Below are positions 17,978-30,274 of a stretch of 64,000 nt of DNA, piece after piece. This stretch comes from an uncultured Candidatus Saccharibacteria bacterium. Its GTDB lineage: Bacteria; Patescibacteriota; Saccharimonadia; Saccharimonadales; UBA10212. The DNA is taken from NCBI GenBank assembly GCA_964448095.1, contig CAYUUT010000001.1, positions 105,829-169,828 of the forward strand, written 5' to 3'. How positions within the stretch are numbered: the stretch's first letter is position 1; each line of letters opens with the position of its first letter. The notes under the pieces were generated by a model that was not told the DNA's origin, ran no database searches, and saw only the letters and a program-made list of their open reading frames with translations. The position numbers were made by a program, and so were the translations under genes.

Positions 17978-18964
17978 ATGACCGCTAAAATAAAAAGTGT
18001 CGGGTCGCATGGCCGAGAACGATTCAAACATAAACCCCGAGGGCTCAGTGATCGGGCCTTTGCTAAAGTTTACTGGCCGTATATTCCGGTAGTATTAATT
18101 GCCGGGGCTATCCTGACTTTTAGCGCCCAGGCTGGCGCGCTGCAGGCTGCCATGAGCAAACACCATGGCCGAGTCCTGGATTACGCCACCAGCATGAGCA
18201 TCAATAATCTGCTGGCCGACACTAACTCCGCCCGAGCCGCCAACGGCGTTGGGTCATTGAGTATTAATAATCAGTTGGACGCCGCGGCTCAGGCTCAAGC
18301 CAACGATATGGCAGCCCGTAACTACTGGAGCCACTATACGCCCCAGGGTCAACCGCCATGGATCTGGGTCGATGCTCAAAATTATTCTTACCAGGCGCTG
18401 GGTCAAAACCTGGCCGCCGGCTTTAATAACGAACAGGCCACGGTTGACGGCTGGCTAGCCAGCCCCGAGCACCGCACCAACATGCTAAACCCTGTCTATA
18501 CCGATGTTGGTTTCGCCTCAGCCAGCAATCCCAACTACACATCCGCGGGCGGCGGTCCAATGACCATAGTGGTAGCCTTTTACGGCGAACCAACGCCTTC
18601 GTACGCAGCATCGCAATCTATCCCTATTACGCCGGCAGCATCGACCCCAGCCTCAACCACTCCTTCCACCAGTTCAACTCCTACATCTAGCCCGAGTGAT
18701 TCCGGTATAACTTTGGCTTACCGCACTAGCCGAGCCCAATTGGCCTTTGCCCACCTGCCGGAAGCCACTTTTGCTACCAGTTTAGTAATAATCGCCGGGA
18801 TTGTTGCCATAGGTCTATGGGTTAGTCGGCATGTATTTGCCTTTAGGCGAGCGTGGGTTCACGGCGAAGAATTCGTGGTTCGTCACCCGTTAATCGACGT
18901 TGGGCTGCTGACTATAGCGGCGGCCTCATTCCTGCTGAGCCAAACTGCCGGCTTTATCCAGTAG
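17978..18964 (+). CDS. CAP/SCP/PR-1 domain protein with an N-terminal TM, an S/T/P-rich linker and two C-terminal TM helices
   Basis: CAP domain motifs (NDMAARNYWSHYTP, GQNLAAG, WLASPEHRTNMLNPVYTDVG). A PST-rich stretch. C-terminal hydrophobic helices. Confidence 0.65.
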   Translation: MTAKIKSVGSHGRERFKHKPRGLSDRAFAKVYWPYIPVVLIAGAILTFSAQAGALQAAMSKHHGRVLDYATSMSINNLLADTNSARAANGVGSLSINNQLDAAAQAQANDMAARNYWSHYTPQGQPPWIWVDAQNYSYQALGQNLAAGFNNEQATVDGWLASPEHRTNMLNPVYTDVGFASASNPNYTSAGGGPMTIVVAFYGEPTPSYAASQSIPITPAASTPASTTPSTSSTPTSSPSDSGITLAYRTSRAQLAFAHLPEATFATSLVIIAGIVAIGLWVSRHVFAFRRAWVHGEEFVVRHPLIDVGLLTIAAASFLLSQTAGFIQ

Positions 18965-23295: not shown

Positions 23296-24696
23296 TTATA
23301 CACCAAGTTGTTTTTTGATGAGTTGTTGAGCCACGCTGGGGTTGGCTTTGCCCTTGGATTTTGCCATCACCTGTCCGACCAAAAAGCTAATGGCTTTCAC
23401 CTCGCCGTTTTTGACGTCTTCGGCGGCTTGAGCATTTTCGCTCAAGACTTCAGCCACAATTTTGTCGATTTCAGCCTCATCCGAGACTTGTTTCTTACCT
23501 TCTGATAACTCCTCGACGCTTTTAGCCGGGTTTTTGGCTTTGGTCAGCAAGATTTCTTTGGCGGTATTGGAGCTGATTTCTTTGGCATTCAGCATCTCGA
23601 CTACTTTGATGTGCTCAGCCAAATCGACTTTAAGAGTGTCCGGCTCCTCCAGCGAGTCAAAGGCTAGACGCCGGATGGTTTCCGGCGCAGCGCGCGTGTC
23701 GGCGGCCTGCAAAACCTTTTTGCAGGCCGCCTGGTCGTCCAAAATATCCTCAATGACGTCCGCGGAAATACTTAACTTATTAAGTATTCTTCTGATGTCG
23801 CCGGGCAGTTGCGGCATTTTGGCTCGTTGCTCTTTGATAAACTCATCATCCAGCTCCAGCGGCGGAACATCCGGTTCGGGCATGTAGCGGTAGTCGTGGG
23901 CTTCTTCTTTACCACGCTGACTGACGGTTTCTTGTTTAGCTTCGTCCCAGCCACGGGTTTCTTGAACGACTTTTTCGCCTTTTTCCAATAGTTCAGTTTG
24001 GCGCTTGATTTCGTACTCCACTGCTGCCTCTACACTGCGGAAGCTGTTTAGATTTTTGATCTCACTGCGCGTGCCAAGCTTTCCAGACTCACTGCTTAGG
24101 CTGGTGTTCACGTCGAAGCGCACGTGGCCGTGATATAAATCCCCCTCGGTCACGCCGGCATATTTCATGGTTAGCCACAGCTCTCGGGCGTAGGCTTTAG
24201 CCTCGGCAGCGCTATGCAGTTCGGGCTTGCTAACGATTTCCAGCAACGGCGTGCCAGCCCGGTTAAAATCTACTAGACTGTAGTCCGCGCCCGCCGGATG
24301 AGTGTTCTTGCCAGCATCGGCTTCTAGATTGGCGCGTTCGACACCAATTTTCTTAGTCGCGCCGGCCTGATTAATCTCCACGTAGCCGCCAACAATAATG
24401 GACGATTGATACTGGGTTATTTGATAGCCCATGGGCAAATCCGGATAAAAGTAGTGCTTGCGCTCGAAATAGCTGTGCTTTTGCGGAACAGTATTTAGGG
24501 CGAAGGCCGCCCGGGCCGAAAGTTCTATAGCAGCTTTGTTCAGCACCGGCAACGCGCCGGGCAGACCAATGTCTATATGGCTGATCAGTGTGTTCGGCTT
24601 GGCCTCGCGAGCATCATTGTCTACGGCCGAAAATAGCTTGGTCTTGGTTCTAAGTTGCACGTGACACTCAATTCCAATAGTAGGTGTGTACTTCAT
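23296..24696 (-). CDS. gatB: Aspartyl/glutamyl-tRNA(Asn/Gln) amidotransferase subunit B
   Basis: MKYTPTIGIECHVQL... A GatB N-terminal domain and a C-terminal YqeY-like domain. Confidence 0.9.
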   Translation of the reverse strand: MKYTPTIGIECHVQLRTKTKLFSAVDNDAREAKPNTLISHIDIGLPGALPVLNKAAIELSARAAFALNTVPQKHSYFERKHYFYPDLPMGYQITQYQSSIIVGGYVEINQAGATKKIGVERANLEADAGKNTHPAGADYSLVDFNRAGTPLLEIVSKPELHSAAEAKAYARELWLTMKYAGVTEGDLYHGHVRFDVNTSLSSESGKLGTRSEIKNLNSFRSVEAAVEYEIKRQTELLEKGEKVVQETRGWDEAKQETVSQRGKEEAHDYRYMPEPDVPPLELDDEFIKEQRAKMPQLPGDIRRILNKLSISADVIEDILDDQAACKKVLQAADTRAAPETIRRLAFDSLEEPDTLKVDLAEHIKVVEMLNAKEISSNTAKEILLTKAKNPAKSVEELSEGKKQVSDEAEIDKIVAEVLSENAQAAEDVKNGEVKAISFLVGQVMAKSKGKANPSVAQQLIKKQLGV

Positions 24697-25097
24697 AACG
24701 CTCCCAGGTCGTGCAAGCCCTTTTTGAAACCAGCTAGGGCGTTTTGGGCTTCGTTCTTTTTGAGCTTTACGTCAGGCTCGTGTACCAGGCGGTTGCGCAA
24801 TTTGTGGGCGTACCAAACAGCGTCGTTATCCTTCATCGAGCGTTGGGCGGCCACCAGCCGCTCGCCCATAGTTTTGCCGGAAAAGCCGCGCTTTTTAAGC
24901 GCTTCATCCAGAAGCTTATCGGCATCAATTACCGCTAAAATCATGCCGTCGGGCGTTTTGACGCGGGCTAAAAGCTCCAGCCATTTATTCTGGAAATGTT
25001 CTTGGTTTAAGCCGCGGCGTACAACTCCGCCAAAGCGGTTGATGAGCGCCAGAACAATTACGCCCAGAATTATTATGCCAATCAGGAACTCAAACAT
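24693..25097 (-). CDS. Membrane-anchored hypothetical protein inserted between gatA and gatB
   Basis: 134 aa. TM FLIGIIILGVIVLALI. The start overlaps the gatA stop and the stop overlaps the gatB start. Confidence 0.5.
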   Translation of the reverse strand: MFEFLIGIIILGVIVLALINRFGGVVRRGLNQEHFQNKWLELLARVKTPDGMILAVIDADKLLDEALKKRGFSGKTMGERLVAAQRSMKDNDAVWYAHKLRNRLVHEPDVKLKKNEAQNALAGFKKGLHDLGAL

Positions 25098-26503
25098 CAG
25101 GCCAGCTCCTCAAAAGCCCGGGCGGCTGCCAACAGCCGGCGGTCGGCGCTCATTGGCGCAATAATTTGCAAACCTACAGGCAAGTTATCTGCCATACCTG
25201 CCGGCACGCTAATCGCCGGATTACCGGAAATGTTGGCGGCCACCGTCATGATGTCAGTTAGATACATTTGCAGCGGATCGCCGGTCTTTTCGCCGATTTT
25301 GAATGCCGTCGTGGGCGAAGTTGGTCCCACTAGCAAGTCAAATTTTTCAAAAGCTGCTGCAAATTCGTTAATAATTTTGGTGCGAACCATTTGGGCCTTC
25401 TTATAATAAGCATCGTAGTAGCCGCTGGATAAAACATAAGTACCAATCATAATGCGGCGCTTGGCCTCGGCGCCAAAGCCTTGTTCGCGGCTGAGCTCAT
25501 AGCTCTCTTCTAAGTCATTGGCTTCTTTGGCACTGAAGCCGTAGCGCTGGCCATCGTAACGCGCCAGATTGCTGCTGACCTCGGCCGGACAAACAATATA
25601 ATAAACAGCCAGCGCCAGCGGTAAGCTAGGCAAACTAACCTCTAAGACTTCGGCGCCGGCGGCTTTGAATTTTTCGATGGCCGCATCTACAACTTTTTTA
25701 ACTTCACTGTTCAGGCCTTCATCGAAATACTCCTTAATAACACCGACTTTTTTACCCTGCAAATTGCCGTCCAGATCGCCATACGATTTTCCATCGCGCT
25801 CGATAGTCGTGCCGTCCAGCTCGTCGCGCCCGGACATAACGTCCAGTACCAGCGCGGCGTCCTCGACGTTAGTCGCTAGCGGCCCAATAACATCGGTACT
25901 GGAGGCCATAGCGATTACTCCACTACGACTAACCAGTCCATAGGTCGGCTTAAGCCCCACAGCGCCACAAAAGCTGGCTGGTAATCGGATGGAGCCGCCG
26001 GTATCTGTACCCAGGGCAAAGGGCGCCAAGCCTAAAACTACGGACGCCGCCGAACCGCCGCTGCTGCCACCGGGCACACGTTCTTTATCGTGCGGATTTT
26101 TAGTCACAAAAAAGTCGCTGTTCTCGGTGCTGCTGCCATGGGCAAAGGCGTCAAGATTGGCCTTAGCCACACAAATAGCGCCCTCGGCTTCCAGTCTTTC
26201 GATAGCTGTCGCCTGATAAAACGCTTCATAAGGTTTGAGGATATTACTGGCGGCCGTAGTTTTGCCTCCCAGAGTAAGGAAATTATCCTTGGCGATAAAC
26301 GGCACGCCGGCCAAGCGGCCTTTGGGATTTTTGTCGATTTCGACCGCGCGCTGCCGCGCGCGGTCGGCCAAAGTTGAAATAATCGCATCAAATTCTTTAT
26401 TGTCATCGATAGCTTTCAGTGCCTGCTCGACTAAATCAGCGGCTTTTAGCTTCCCAGCTTGAACGTCACGAGCAATATCGGCAACCGCCGGCCATTGGCT
26501 CAT
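25097..26503 (-). CDS. gatA: Glutamyl-tRNA(Gln) amidotransferase subunit A (amidase signature family)
   Basis: Amidase signature GGSSGGSAA and the catalytic Ser-cisSer-Lys context. Confidence 0.9.
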   Translation of the reverse strand: MSQWPAVADIARDVQAGKLKAADLVEQALKAIDDNKEFDAIISTLADRARQRAVEIDKNPKGRLAGVPFIAKDNFLTLGGKTTAASNILKPYEAFYQATAIERLEAEGAICVAKANLDAFAHGSSTENSDFFVTKNPHDKERVPGGSSGGSAASVVLGLAPFALGTDTGGSIRLPASFCGAVGLKPTYGLVSRSGVIAMASSTDVIGPLATNVEDAALVLDVMSGRDELDGTTIERDGKSYGDLDGNLQGKKVGVIKEYFDEGLNSEVKKVVDAAIEKFKAAGAEVLEVSLPSLPLALAVYYIVCPAEVSSNLARYDGQRYGFSAKEANDLEESYELSREQGFGAEAKRRIMIGTYVLSSGYYDAYYKKAQMVRTKIINEFAAAFEKFDLLVGPTSPTTAFKIGEKTGDPLQMYLTDIMTVAANISGNPAISVPAGMADNLPVGLQIIAPMSADRRLLAAARAFEELA

Positions 26504-26506
26504 GAT

Positions 26507-26800
26507 TTAGCCCAATACCCTTTTTACTTTGAACTGGCCAGCCTGCTTATCCGGCGCGCCCTTCAGTAAGTCTTCGGTTTTATAGCCATAATCACGTGTG
26601 GAGTCAGTTCGCATCACATTTTTGAGGCCGGTGACTTGATAAGTCGGTTCTAAGCCGGCGGTGTCGGCCTTATCTAAAACCTCTACATATTCCAGGATGG
26701 ATGACAGCTCGGTTCTGAAGCGCTCGACTTCCTCGTCGCTTAAGCGTAAACGGCTAAGTTTAGCCAACTTTAAAACATCGTCCCGGCTCAATTTACTCAT
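26507..26800 (-). CDS. gatC: Glu-tRNA(Gln) amidotransferase subunit C
   Basis: 97 aa. LSRDDVLKLAKLSRLRLSDEEVERF is typical of GatC. Confidence 0.85.
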   Translation of the reverse strand: MSKLSRDDVLKLAKLSRLRLSDEEVERFRTELSSILEYVEVLDKADTAGLEPTYQVTGLKNVMRTDSTRDYGYKTEDLLKGAPDKQAGQFKVKRVLG

Positions 26801-26843
26801 AGTTATTAGCTAAGTATAGCAAATCCTCAACCCCGTGAACTCG

Positions 26844-26872
26844 TTGACAAAGTGCTTTTGTTATTATAGTAT
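26844..26872 (+). promoter_or_regulatory. Sigma70-like promoter: a perfect TTGACA -35 box, with a -10 box either TATAGT (15-nt spacer) or TAGTAT (17-nt spacer)
   Basis: TTGACA at about 26844-26849. The candidate -10 hexamers lie 15-17 nt downstream. It points toward the GC-rich ORF at 26959. Confidence 0.35.
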
Positions 26873-26958
26873 GCAATTAACCAATAATACTCTGTCTGAA
26901 GAGCAGTTGTTTATTTGGCGTTCTTTAAGCAGAGTTAAAAACCCGAACGGAGGCACAG

Positions 26959-27429
26959 ATGTCAGACGGCACGCTGGTTGTGTGTGAAGTGGAGACCCCA
27001 GGCTTCGGCCGCTGCCGAACGCTGCAGTTGTCCGACAGGGCTCGCGGATTCGAGACCGAGAGGCCTCTGTCCGATCTGACGGACGTTCGCGTCGTCAAGC
27101 GCGGTCCCGACCTGGTGGCTCTGCTGATCCACCAGCATCACTGCCGTGTTCCCCTCGAAGAGCTCGGGAGCACCGGGCTCGGCCTCGCGGAGAGGATCCA
27201 CGCCCACGGCCACGTCCAGGGCATCCTTTTCGAGGAGCGCAATCTGATCGTCGTCACGGCGACGATTTCGTTCTACTGGGAGACACTGCTCGACCACGTC
27301 CTGGGGTGCCTCGGCTCCCAAGCCCACCAGCGGCGCGTCGCCCTGCACGAGGAGGCAAGGCGCCGCAGGACAGAAGCGGTACTGCCGCTCGGCCTATACC
27401 CAGGCGGCTCCAAGCCGCTCCCGGCGTAG
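26959..27429 (+). CDS. Hypothetical 156-aa protein in a ~65% GC islet, with codon usage typical of high-GC organisms
   Basis: A GGAGG Shine-Dalgarno site 5 nt upstream of the ATG. GC3 about 85%, against first-position GC far lower. The antisense ORF at 26962..27348 shares the same codon register but has a low-GC third position, so the plus frame is the coding one. No family recognised. Confidence 0.45.
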   Translation: MSDGTLVVCEVETPGFGRCRTLQLSDRARGFETERPLSDLTDVRVVKRGPDLVALLIHQHHCRVPLEELGSTGLGLAERIHAHGHVQGILFEERNLIVVTATISFYWETLLDHVLGCLGSQAHQRRVALHEEARRRRTEAVLPLGLYPGGSKPLPA

Positions 27430-27451
27430 TCGACACGCCACGCTTCCTCCT

Positions 27452-27487
27452 GGAGAGGCCGGCCAGCACTATAGGGCCGGCCTCTCC
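27452..27487. terminator. Perfect 13-bp GC-rich hairpin (GGAGAGGCCGGCC-10 nt loop-GGCCGGCCTCTCC) with no U-tract; candidate I-shaped/bidirectional terminator
   Basis: Sits 23 nt after the stop of the GC-rich ORF and about 115 nt beyond the convergent uvrB stop. Confidence 0.45.
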
Positions 27488-27600
27488 CACACGCATGAAA
27501 TCGTCAAGGATTACTTCTTGGCCTACTAAGTTTCATGCCCTTCGAGCATTAACTCTGCTCTTTCCCGGACTGCTCAAGTTTTGAGCGTTGCGGAAAAGAT

Positions 27601-29559
27601 TTACAATTTAGCTTTAACCTCTTCTATAAGATCACGGAGCTCGGCGGCTTTTTCGAATTCCAGGTTGGCCGCCGCCAAATCCATTTGTGAAGTTAAATCA
27701 CGTATAAGATAACTATATTCTTCTCTGGGAATCTTTTTGAGATCCAATTTGGGCTTATCTGACTTTTCTGAGCGCGGCAGCATCTGGTCTACGGCACGGC
27801 TAATGCTGCGCGGTTTAATTTTATGGTCTTTGTTGTACTTCTCCTGGATTTGGCGACGGCGGTTAGTCTCGTCAATTGTCCGCTGCATGCTGCCGGTGAC
27901 GCGGTCAGCATACATTATTACGTGGCCCTCCAGATGGCGGGCCGCCCGCCCAACCGTTTGAATCAGTGCCTGCTGACTGCGCAAAAAGCCTTCTTTATCG
28001 GCGTCCAGAATCGCCACTAGGCTAACTTCCGGCAAGTCCAAGCCTTCGCGCAACAGGTTAATTCCGACTAGCACGTCATAAACCCCCAGGCGCAAATCGC
28101 GCAGAATATCTGTTCGCTCCAGTGTGTCGACTTCACTATGCAGATAAGCCACCTTCAACTTGAGCTCCTGCAGGTACTCCGCCAGGTCTTCGCTCATGCG
28201 TTTAGTCAGGGTTGTCACCAGAACCCGCTGGCCCTTACTGACGGTGTCACGGATTTCGGCAATCAGGTCATCGATTTGGCCCTCAATCGGCCGGACTTCA
28301 ATCGGCGGATCCAGCAGGCCGGTGGGACGAATAACCTGCTGCACCGGCTCCGGACTATGTGTTAGTTCATATTCGGCCGGGGTGGCGCTGACGTAGATTG
28401 TCTGGTTCATGTGCCTTTCAAATTCCGTAAATGTCAGCGGTCGGTTATCGAGAGCGCTGGGCAGCCTAAAGCCGTGCTCGACTAATACTTCTTTACGCGA
28501 GCGGTCGCCGTGATACATACCCCTCACTTGGGGAATACTCATATGCGACTCGTCGATTATTAATAGGTAGTCGTCCGGAAAGTAATCCATGAGCGTGGCC
28601 GGCTGCTCGCCCTCTTCGCGGTTGGTCAGGTAACGGCTGTAGTTTTCAATGCCTTTAACAAAGCCGGTTTGCTCTAACATTTCCAGGTCGAACTTGACGC
28701 GCTGCTCGAGGCGCTGCGCTTCTAGCAATTTACCTTGATCCTTAAACCACTTTCCGCGTTCCTCAGCCTCATCGCGAATTTTGCCAAGCGCGGCTTTGAG
28801 CTTTTCCTCCGGCGTCACGTAGTGGCTCCCTGGAAAAATACTTAACACGTCAAGTAATTTTTCAACTTCGCCGGTAAGCGGATTAATTTGTTGCATGCGC
28901 TCAATTTCGTCGCCAAAAAACTCAATGCGGTAAGCGGTCTCTTCGCCAGCCGGAAAAACATCTACTACGTCTCCTCTGACCCGGAAATTGCCGCGCTCAA
29001 AGGCCATATCATTGCGGCGGTACTGGATGTCGGTCAACTGGCGCAGCAGTTTGTCCCGAACCCGCCGTTCGCCTTTTTTGAGCCGCACCGCCATATTGTC
29101 GTAATCCTCCACCGAACCAATGCCGTAGATACAGGACACGCTGGCAACAATAATTACGTCCTTGCGCGAAAGCAGCGCCGCTGTGGCAGCGTGGCGCAGC
29201 CGGTCAATCTCCTCATTAATATCACTGTCTTTCTCTATATAGGTATCGCTGCGCGGCACGTAGGCTTCGGGCTGATAGTAATCAAAATAGCTGACAAAAT
29301 AATGCACGGCGTTATCCGGAAAGAATAGCCTGAACTCGTTATAAAGTTGGGCGGCTAGGGTTTTGTTGTGGCTTAGGACCAGCGTGGTCTTTTGGGTGTT
29401 TTGAATTAAATTGGCCATGGTAAAAGTTTTGCCAGAGCCAGTCACGCCCAAAAGCGTTTGGTTTTTGGCGCCCTTCTGTAAACCCTCCGTCAATGCGGCA
29501 ATTGCCCGTGGCTGGTCGCCAGTGGGCTGATAATCACTCTTTAGATGGAATTTAGCCAT
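27601..29559 (-). CDS. uvrB: Excinuclease ABC subunit B
   Basis: Walker [11 protein letters not shown], helicase motifs and a C-terminal UVR domain ([19 protein letters not shown]). Confidence 0.95.
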
Positions 29560-29596
29560 CCTTTAATTGTAAGGTCTAGAGGCTAATTTGGTCTAT

Positions 29597-30274
29597 CTAT
29601 TCAATGTTGTAAACAACTAACTGCCCCTTGTCGTTGCCACAAAGAGGAGCGGTCGTATTGGTGTCGGTATTGGCCGTAAGAATTTCTGAAGGCACACGAT
29701 ACTGCTGGAGATTTAAGCAACTTGCCAAGTCCCACACGACACTGCCATTCTTAGCGCCCACAGAACTTGTACTAATGGATACCCAGCCGCCGTTAGACTT
29801 TGCTAAAAGTAGCCCGCCAGCGCCCTCTCCGCCGCATGTGTAAATAAGGTTAAAGTATTGGGCATCTTTAGTCATGTTAATTTCCGTCAAATTGTCTGAA
29901 CTAAAGCTAGCACCTGGAGCGCAATTAGCGCTCCAGGCCATCCGTACTGCTTCCTGCAAATCAGCAGGCAGATCCTGCCAATCAGTTTTAACGGTGTTGT
30001 TTTCTATTATGGGGAGTTTTTGATAACTACCCGAAAGCGTTACACAATAATAGTCGCTGCCAACTAATTTAGTACTTGAACATACCGTACCGTTTTTGGC
30101 AACAACAGAGCTAACTATAGGAGTACTTTGGCTAGCTTGAGAAGAGTTTGAGGTCGCCTTAGCTTTGTGTTGGTTGTGCCAAACAGCGTAGCCGGCCAAG
30201 CCTACCACCGCCAGGATTAGAATTACTAGAAGTGTTTCAACGAGTCCAAAACCTTTTTGTTTTTGGTTTTTCAT
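29597..30274 (-). CDS. Type IV pilin-like protein (prepilin N-terminal methylation domain)
   Basis: KGFGLVETLLVILILAVVGLAGYAV, a class III signal motif (G/F-x-L-V-E). Cysteines in the C-terminal half. Confidence 0.7.
   Translation of the reverse strand: MKNQKQKGFGLVETLLVILILAVVGLAGYAVWHNQHKAKATSNSSQASQSTPIVSSVVAKNGTVCSSTKLVGSDYYCVTLSGSYQKLPIIENNTVKTDWQDLPADLQEAVRMAWSANCAPGASFSSDNLTEINMTKDAQYFNLIYTCGGEGAGGLLLAKSNGGWVSISTSSVGAKNGSVVWDLASCLNLQQYRVPSEILTANTDTNTTAPLCGNDKGQLVVYNIE

Follow-up and report, generated by a model that had tools for sequence, protein, structure and literature searches.

A 64-kb stretch of the genome of an uncultured Candidatus Saccharibacteria bacterium (i.e. positions 105,829 to 169,828 of contig CAYUUT010000001.1, assembly GCA_964448095.1) raises the question of why a short islet rich in guanine plus cytosine (GC) should lie between gatC and uvrB. 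The whole stretch is referred to here as the window and coordinates are positions within it; the islet occupies 26955-27490. An initial annotation had described this islet as a small gene, an open reading frame (ORF) of 156 codons designated here as ORF156, that was acquired horizontally from a high-GC donor and is now driven by a host-type promoter. The GC content of the islet is 0.666 as compared to 0.507 for the whole window, and the islet is the maximum among all 540-bp segments (mean 0.507, standard deviation 0.033), lying ~4.8 standard deviations above the mean. The profile rises from 0.34 (26850-26949) to 0.64 (26950-27049) and falls to 0.46 (27500-27599), so that the annotated jump at about 26955 and drop at about 27490 were borne out (66.6% versus 50.7% GC). 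Comparison with relatives gave a different account of its origin. The islet is not an artefact and matches no known element. It represents one case of a hitherto undescribed single-locus module of the Saccharimonadales, and a literature search returned no relevant description of this locus in Saccharibacteria. The explanation that we favour, with a little more confidence than doubt, is that the islet is the variable coding slot (i.e. ORF156 plus a GC-rich stem-loop) of a lineage-specific, self-contained expression module that is located between uvrB and gatC, is divergent from gatC and has the ends of its mRNA clamped together.

GatC served to collect loci from species-representative genomes (80) and metagenomes (80), which with few exceptions are labelled Saccharibacteria or Saccharimonadales, and the DNA upstream of gatC was read in the sense of ORF156 for comparison between loci. 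In most loci having both genes, uvrB and gatC are neighbours on the same strand, separated by a spacer of between 22 bp and 4.6 kb. In about 30 loci this spacer is <100 bp in length and consists of a few bases, an extended -10 box of gatC (i.e. TGnTATAMT) and the 12-18 nt leading to the ATG. At the same site at least 16 species carry the module and others carry different genes, with several unrelated gene families among the longer spacers. This range of spacer lengths and contents (i.e. empty, module or other genes) indicates that the uvrB-gatC site is a hotspot.

Sixteen modules were read from end to end (i.e. the window, L004, L005, L007, L015, L019, L021, L038, L085, L090, L092, L103, L105, L111, L117 and L121) while five further module loci were cut by a contig end. 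Common to the 16 complete loci, and hence to at least 16 Saccharimonadales species, is an eight-part unit comprising, in order, a promoter, a 5' hairpin, the motif of the left arm of an inverted repeat (IR-L), an A/C tract with GGAGG, the ORF or ORFs (one to four per module), a GC stem, the right arm of the repeat (IR-R) and, in most loci, a terminal hairpin. The module was single-copy in the window and in 163 loci, and was always found at the gatC site. The GC-rich part in the window begins exactly at the Shine-Dalgarno site and finishes exactly where the conserved GC stem-loop ends, and the DNA outside is low in GC and conserved.

The left limit of the module is set by gatC (26507-26800, minus strand; Pfam GatC, E 9e-21), which is transcribed away from it, and by the extended -10 box belonging to gatC itself (TGCTATACT; 26813-26821, minus strand), which lies 12 nt before the gatC ATG. 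A TGnTATAMT box is present 12-18 nt before this ATG in nearly all species, those with empty spacers included. Back-to-back with the gatC promoter, in DNA of 34% GC, is the module promoter (26844-26872; this and the following elements are on the plus strand), with TTGACA at 26844-26849, a 17-nt spacer and TAGTAT at 26867-26872 (10/12 matches). The perfect TTGACA of the initial annotation is therefore present and the -10 box is the TAGTAT of the two sequences then proposed. The promoter and leader pattern recurs in 29 loci, in which TTGAC is invariant, the spacer is 16-19 nt and the -10 box is TAnnnT (mostly TAnnAT); most module promoters have a TG just before the -10 box and are situated ~45 nt from the gatC ATG, facing away from it. 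The annotated view of a host-type promoter captured by an imported gene does not hold, as at least 16 species conserve the unit to which this promoter belongs.

The 5' leader hairpin (26897-26927) is weak in the window (minimum free energy -8.2 kcal/mol). In relatives it is long, with an A-rich 5' arm, a U-rich 3' arm and stem sequences that are unrelated between species; judged by per-sequence z-scores, it was stabler than shuffled sequences in 12 of 13 folded relatives (z -2.1 to -5.3). RNAalifold found no structure in a MAFFT alignment of the leaders, because this alignment is not structural. IR-L (AGCAGAGTTAA, 26928-26938) is 11 nt long, 100% complementary to IR-R and holds the conserved G(C/T)AG(A/G)G motif, which occurs in all modules together with a few species-specific bases. 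The A/C-rich leader (AAACCCGAAC), GGAGG (26949-26953) and a 5-nt spacer make up 26939-26958; both the tract and the GGAGG recur in relatives, and the latter stands 5 nt before the ATG at 26959, as annotated. IR-L ends 10 nt before the GGAGG.

Downstream of ORF156 (26959-27429), the GC stem-loop (27452-27487) consists of the arms GGAGAGGCCGGCC (27452-27464) and GGCCGGCCTCTCC (27475-27487), which form 13 bp with 100% complementarity around a 10-nt loop. This element closes the GC-rich stretch, beginning 22 nt past the ORF156 stop codon and being followed by no T-run, and so matches the perfect hairpin lacking a U-tract that had been annotated. Thirteen further distinct loci have, after their last ORF, a perfect hairpin of at least 11 bp with an arm that reads GGAG(R)(R)nCC(R)GC or a near variant of it, and in modules with a folded 3' region the last ORF ends ~10-30 nt before this hairpin. 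No copy of this motif was found outside the module in 1.7 Mb of relatives' loci. In IMG/VR there were 26 matches to the stem-loop pattern, as compared to an estimated chance expectation of roughly a few to a few tens, providing no evidence for a phage origin. The fold of the 3' untranslated region (UTR) contains an AU-rich hairpin (27493-27538, inner stem CAAGGAttacTTCTTGG), and hairpins like it (CAAGRA..TCTTGG) were observed in L019 and L092. IR-R (TTAACTCTGCT, 27549-27559) is a perfect reverse complement of IR-L, 610 nt downstream. Directly after it is the terminal hairpin (CTTTCCCGG...CGGAAAAG; 27560-27598; minimum free energy -15.4 kcal/mol), a probable terminator that is followed on the plus strand by AUUUACAAUUU and lies 2 nt from the stop codon of uvrB (27601-29559, minus strand; Pfam UvrB_inter, UvrB, Helicase_C and UVR), which is convergent with ORF156. 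Of the 13 loci examined, 11 have a terminal hairpin of ~40 nt immediately after IR-R, the two without it at this position being L007 and L015; in most of the 11 the hairpin ends a few bases from the uvrB stop codon. Other genes separate the terminal hairpin from uvrB in L004, L019 and L111, in which the hairpin still adjoins IR-R, indicating that the unit belongs with gatC and not with uvrB. Overall, the complete expression unit of promoter, Shine-Dalgarno site, ORF and stem-loop proposed in the initial annotation was upheld.

A perfect pair of repeat arms of 8-15 nt was present in 16/16 complete modules, and the distal copy changes in step with variants of the motif (i.e. GTAGAG and GTAGGG; inner bases CAAT, TAGT, CATAC etc.). 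When 13 species were aligned in fixed register, covariation scored 0.322 as compared to 0.144 ± 0.023 in shuffles (0/500 reached the observed value) and at most 0.10 for slid partners; 31 cells were changed on both sides versus 13.9 in shuffles. The IR-L:IR-R helix formed part of the predicted minimum-energy fold of the inferred full transcript in 12/12 species, with a pair probability of 0.74-1.00. The fold of the window transcript had a z-score of -5.3 and its complement of -6.4, the excess folding energy of ~40 kcal/mol being about the sum supplied by three hairpins and the closing helix. Three further ideas on the repeats were rejected. Locking of the ribosome-binding site by the helix was not predicted, the accessibility of this site being 0.42 with IR-R and 0.43 without. 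When G-U pairs were used as a strand test, the minus strand seemed to be favoured (12/13 duplexes stabler, p 0.0007); a control with non-cognate duplexes was equally biased, indicating that the preference is due to flank composition. Extension of the repeats through mirrored outer flanks was not seen, as scores were 11.7 for cognate, 11.6 for non-cognate and 11.5 for shuffled flanks.

Between these conserved ends, an ORF of 79-207 amino acids starts behind the conserved GGAGG in 16/16 modules with a fully read first ORF. In such DNA we estimate a chance of ~0.05-0.1 that a frame stays open for at least 79 codons after a fixed start, and 16 in a row at this probability indicate that the cassette ORFs have not arisen by chance. 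For the 15 of these 16 first ORFs with computed codon positions, the GC content of the second position (GC2) was the lowest (0.40-0.57) and that of the third position (GC3) was 0.60-0.85. First ORFs exceeded the GC of the surrounding locus by 2-16 points in every species, and by at least 7 points in all but one, whatever the GC of the genome (0.42-0.54). As the excess recurs in every module-bearing species, it is a property of the slot and not the trace of one transfer.

ORF156 itself exhibits GC1, GC2 and GC3 values of 0.72, 0.45 and 0.82, with GC2 as the low position. Among 54 non-overlapping window ORFs of at least 120 amino acids, the mean GC3 was 0.56 (standard deviation 0.06) and none but ORF156 was above 0.65. 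The third-position bias reported in the initial annotation is thus present, at 0.82 and not ~85%; GC1 is below GC3 as described and yet not 'much lower'. The antisense ORF (26962-27348, minus strand), which shares its codon register with ORF156, has values of 0.83, 0.43 and 0.72. Its dismissal as a shadow ORF stands, since GC1 above GC3 is a weaker coding pattern, whereas the low third-position GC ascribed to it was not observed (i.e. 0.72). By our estimate an open frame of 156 codons has a chance of ~0.02 in DNA of 66% GC, which alone is weak evidence for coding; the strong evidence is comparative, as an ORF lies at the same place behind the same leader in 15/15 other fully read modules. ORF156 is probably a protein gene without known relatives. 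Its product is predicted to be soluble, without a transmembrane segment, has an isoelectric point of 6.7 and is rich in His and Arg. Only self-matches were obtained in a word-indexed search of 5.8 billion protein clusters (90% identity) and in an HMMER scan of all 1.84 billion cluster representatives (50% identity). There were zero matches in Pfam, PHROGs, PADLOC and PDB sequences, and none at the DNA or protein level in plasmid and phage collections, in agreement with the annotated lack of a recognisable family.

Related cassettes were detected in two groups. The cassettes of L004 and L005 align over 81 amino acids without gaps (E 5e-20) while their DNA is not alignable, and L038 and one ORF of L021 belong to the same family; those of L084 and L090 are also related (E 9e-6). 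The remaining cassettes, ORF156 included, exhibited no significant similarity to one another, even at UvrB identities of 88-92%, no cassette had a Pfam family, and the L004 cassette had no homologue in the word-indexed protein search. Membership of ORF156 in the L004/L005/L038/L021 family was examined with a profile, giving 5.6 bits (a score reached by 11/5000 shuffles) and an E value of 0.43 among 432 spacer ORFs, and is not claimed. All cassette proteins are predicted to be soluble, with Arg far above Lys, a threefold enrichment of Cys, grand average of hydropathy values of -0.66 to -0.01, a highest 19-residue hydropathy of 1.49 and no predicted membrane segment.

Two further features of the cassette proteins were observed. 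His makes up 5.8% of ORF156 and forms the clusters HQHHC and HAHGH (window 27113-27118 and 27191-27196), which may indicate metal binding; several other cassettes are likewise His-rich (4-5%). Ala-rich tails (i.e. -FAAV, -AAVA, -SAVA, -AAAS, -LVAA, -PAAA and -MAAA) are present in seven cassette proteins from L004, L005, L084, L090, L007, L121 and L038, comprising six of 17 first ORFs plus the second ORF of L038. These tails recall ssrA-type degradation tags, or may simply reflect GC-rich codons; ORF156 ends in -PLPA.

In the favoured explanation, a plus-strand transcript would run from ~26879, as placed by the promoter, to the terminal hairpin at ~27600. The message would comprise the 5' hairpin, the IR-L:IR-R helix, a strong ribosome-binding site, the ORF, the GC stem and the terminal hairpin, then AUUUACAAUUU. 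Pairing of IR-L with IR-R in the RNA would clamp the 5' and 3' UTRs together between the two end hairpins, leaving the ribosome-binding site unlocked, and the clamp and the GC-rich codons might protect the message from ribonucleases, as in the Bacillus subtilis hbs mRNA. Selection against AU-rich ribonuclease sites, we infer, would keep synonymous positions GC-rich in any ORF occupying the slot. ORF156 would be translated into a small soluble protein that is either very fast-evolving or swapped among modules. A role for this protein in conflict or host interaction is a guess based only on turnover.

Several observations weigh against this explanation. The 5' hairpin of the window is no better than shuffled sequences (z -0.28). 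The 10 core columns of the repeat are free of G-U pairs, a pattern that fits strict identity at the DNA level at least as well as selection on RNA, and prediction of the helix is no less good on the opposite strand. Transcription could already stop at the GC stem-loop, before IR-R, in which case the clamp would be absent from the mRNA. The start and 3' end of the transcript and the translation of ORF156 are deduced from sequence, and the reason given for the sustained GC richness of the slot is likewise only our inference. A single-sequence structure prediction for ORF156 was uninformative (predicted local distance difference test score 38.6), and the similarity of ORF156 to the L004/L005/L038/L021 family was non-significant. 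The islet, ORF156 included, is invariant among the three strains read, such that selection is not measurable there; near-identical pairs of loci in relatives differ at only 0-2 positions across the region.

Pairing between UTRs has precedents in other bacteria. The nearest documented case is the B. subtilis hbs mRNA, in which a 14-bp pairing of the 5' UTR with the 3' UTR modulates cleavage by RNase Y within the structured leader of a small gene that is strongly translated and, as in the module, the helix does not cover the ribosome-binding site (PMC5737220). The two differ in that hbs encodes the conserved protein HU while the module protein differs between species and its clamp is predicted, and in that the module arms abut end hairpins and carry a conserved GCAGAG core. 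As in messages with paired UTRs, complementary segments flank the ORF on the same strand (16/16 modules) and exhibit compensatory change; they do not cover the Shine-Dalgarno site. Such coverage is found in the Staphylococcus aureus icaR mRNA, in which an anti-Shine-Dalgarno motif of the 3' UTR pairs with the Shine-Dalgarno site and RNase III is involved (PMC3868564). The module resembles icaR in its predicted 5'-3' UTR pairing within one mRNA and in the C-rich CCUCC arm, complementary to GGAGG, that its GC stem-loop conserves in the 3' UTR. However, the covarying repeat is 10 nt upstream of the Shine-Dalgarno site and not on it, and the CCUCC arm is already paired within its own hairpin.

The hok/sok locus is a type I toxin system in which folding locks the toxin mRNA, and a helix joining both ends of the mRNA has been inferred from covariation in the hok family. 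The mRNA of another type I toxin, aapA1/IsoA1, is also locked by folding (PMC5416894). The module would share with these systems a full-length transcript whose fold matters for expression. In contrast, these toxins are hydrophobic peptides of 30-50 amino acids, and type I toxins as a class are small membrane peptides of under ~60 amino acids, whereas module proteins are soluble, of 79-207 amino acids and without a predicted membrane segment; sequestration of the ribosome-binding site of the module is likewise not predicted. An antisense RNA gene was not seen; the only promoter-like site on the opposite strand near the 5' end is weak (TAAACA-18-TATTAT, 9/12; window 26913-26884, minus strand), is antisense to the 5' leader and could give a short antisense RNA. 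The icaR and type I toxin mRNAs fit the module less well than hbs, as the repeat stops 10 nt short of the Shine-Dalgarno site and the products are not membrane peptides.

The strongest competing explanation, itself unlikely, is that the slot holds foreign DNA, derived either from a single transfer from a high-GC donor (e.g. an actinobacterial host) or from repeated import of cassettes from a high-GC pool. The GC, GC1, GC2 and GC3 of ORF156 are as generally expected of a native gene in a genome of ~65% GC, and among the 54 window ORFs it is set far apart from the rest. As a hotspot, the site occurs in empty, filled and differently filled states, and unrelated cassettes occur in species whose UvrB proteins are ~91% identical. 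In addition, the types of leader and terminal hairpin, as sorted by eye, do not track uvrB identities, indicating that modules appear to recombine between lineages. Against a foreign source, neither of the two protein searches, nor the plasmid and phage collections, contained a donor relative of ORF156, and the L004 cassette was equally without a homologue in the word-indexed search; the annotated transfer of a single gene from a high-GC donor was thus not substantiated. A single import would also need to land precisely between two conserved elements. As the GC-rich part extends exactly from the Shine-Dalgarno site to the stem-loop, an exchange partner must carry the same scaffold, i.e. be another Saccharimonadales module instead of an actinobacterium. 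Genes within 10 kb had no record of an integrase or other recombinase family, ARAGORN detected no tRNA in the window and no flanking direct repeats were found at the islet. Thus the islet combines the deviant composition and patchy presence of horizontally acquired DNA with the lack of a donor homologue and of a mobility signature. A recent import is not supported by these sequence comparisons, while repeated exchange of cassettes among Saccharimonadales modules is possible.

Known mobile and inserted elements resemble the module in part. Phage 'morons', reportedly described by Hendrix, Juhala and colleagues in 2000, are said to be autonomous units of promoter, small ORF and terminator with deviant composition, inserted between genes that are adjacent in relatives. 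The module is likewise a unit of promoter, small ORF and probable terminator with deviant composition between genes adjacent in relatives; it differs in its chromosomal position, at one constant site between housekeeping genes, in its conserved scaffold and pairing end repeats, and in the lack of a phage context or PHROG match. The minimal mobile elements of Neisseria (Saunders and Snyder, 2002, as cited in PMC1538595) are reported to be sites between two conserved genes with different whole-gene inserts by lineage, and the uvrB-gatC site likewise holds different inserts in different lineages. Correia repeat-enclosed elements are short elements with inverted repeats, able to provide promoters and to bind RNase III (PMC1538595; PMC2649163). 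These elements are multi-copy and non-coding, whereas a single copy of the module was present in the window and in each of the loci read.

Somewhat less probable than foreign DNA is a bolder form of the favoured explanation, in which the module would be a dedicated scaffold for hypervariable small proteins, with a fixed, strong promoter, clamped mRNA and 3' stem-loop into which GC-rich coding sequences are repeatedly born or swapped. The products would then be conflict or host-directed factors of these epibionts, and the codon usage, which departs from that of the genome and resembles that of a high-GC genome, would be kept in order to stabilise the message or, as a more speculative option, to suit expression in a host of high GC.

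For the repeats, the chief alternative is a DNA inversion switch, in which IR-L and IR-R would act as recombination sites of a 610-bp invertible segment (inverton) turning ORF156 on or off with respect to a fixed promoter. The repeats are perfect, strictly Watson-Crick, 8-15 bp in length and covarying around a conserved core without G-U intermediates, and the fixed promoter is outside the repeats with the ORF inside. We consider this switch improbable, as the ORF was in the 'on' orientation in all loci read from promoter into ORF (17 distinct loci, ~24 contigs), no second ORF with a ribosome-binding site was present at the other end, the flanks outside the repeats are not mirrored and the arms are short for a recombinase site. 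A recombinase family was also not recorded for genes within 10 kb, although an enzyme acting in trans from elsewhere is possible.

It is more doubtful still that the GC-rich stretch is a structured non-coding RNA with paired ends and that ORF156 is a by-product of its high GC. The closing helix exhibits covariation, both strands fold far better than shuffles, structural RNAs commonly exceed the genome average in GC, and the estimated chance of a frame this long in DNA of 66% GC is ~2%. On the other hand, the ~40 kcal/mol excess is roughly accounted for by the three hairpins and closing helix, and the interior is not conserved in sequence even at a UvrB identity of ~90% and follows a three-base period in which GC2 is the minimum. 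In every species a start codon and a consensus GGAGG are found at a fixed place, and protein-level similarity is evident in two cassette groups. No Rfam family was detected: Rfam 15 gave no match at the gathering threshold in the window, only chance-level matches at E <=10 in 26700-27700 and no match at E <=0.1 in eight relatives' loci.

Three mobile-element classes were rejected as descriptions of the islet. A diversity-generating retroelement target does not fit, as no islet repeat of >16 nt occurs elsewhere in the window and no reverse-transcriptase family was recorded within 10 kb. A miniature inverted-repeat transposable element or transposon with terminal inverted repeats is not indicated, the element being single-copy with no evident target duplication and having its promoter and both end hairpins outside the repeats. 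For an integron cassette, no integrase or recombinase family was recorded within 10 kb and, by our reading, the cores GCAGAG/CTCTGC misfit the attC consensus RYYYAAC/GTTRRRY.

The composition change is abrupt at both borders of the islet, as would be produced by an assembly chimera or by contamination from a co-assembled high-GC genome. The exact ORF156 protein is recorded on five contigs. The islet and both junctions were identical in contigs of three independent assemblies (i.e. ENA ERZ27245399, Logan SRR8465028 and JGI 3300028800), with the same gatC-ORF156-uvrB arrangement and zero differences from ~26230 to 28040. Contigs with both junctions ranged from 5.5 to 23.7 kb, and a 530-kb contig is reported for the ORF156 protein. 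Two of the three contigs differ from the window beyond uvrB, where a segment is replaced at 29572-30248, indicating that at least two strain backgrounds carry the islet. With identical sequence through the islet in three independent assemblies and two strain backgrounds, and with borders that coincide with functional elements conserved in other species, misassembly is very unlikely, the concern over a chimera raised in the initial annotation is largely answered and this explanation can hardly be credited.

The segment at 29572-30248 is strain-variable in its gene content. At 29597-30274 the window and L002 carry a 225-codon ORF whose product has a type IV pilin-like motif for N-terminal methylation, and a different ORF of 179 codons is present at this site in strains L001 and L003. 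At 18571-18665, inside an ORF with a CAP domain (17978-18964), there are 24 differences in 95 bp relative to strain L001 in an alignment otherwise 99.7% identical; this cluster looks like a short recombination tract. Between gatA and gatB, with an overlap of a few bases with both, is a 134-codon ORF (24693-25097) without a Pfam match that is also called in public contigs.

Other cargo of the uvrB-gatC spacer includes a family of 289-296 amino acids in the uvrB sense in five loci, a second family in this sense of 247-349 amino acids that appears hydrophobic by eye, and three opposite-strand families of ~290-390 amino acids, one of which (~285-325 amino acids) is S33 hydrolase-like. Most of these non-module families had no Pfam match. 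In the ~30 loci with short spacers, the extended -10 box of gatC is only 12-18 nt before the ATG and no Shine-Dalgarno sequence was seen, which suggests that the gatCAB message may be leaderless or near-leaderless across the Saccharimonadales.

The module of the favoured explanation combines features that are rarely found together in one locus, i.e. a fixed scaffold, covarying end pairing, turnover of the coding sequence at ~90% UvrB identity and a slot whose GC is held high. If the clamp acts on RNA, it would provide a clear example of 5'-3' UTR pairing, supported by phylogeny, from a lineage without genetics; if the repeats act on DNA, they would constitute a new switch. A 'GC island' of this type need not signal recent transfer. 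Patescibacteria have small genomes that are full of genes of unknown function, and the dealings of these epibionts with their hosts are largely unknown. For such uncultured bacteria the locus, divergent from gatC, is a defined and easily found marker for the birth or exchange of orphan genes.

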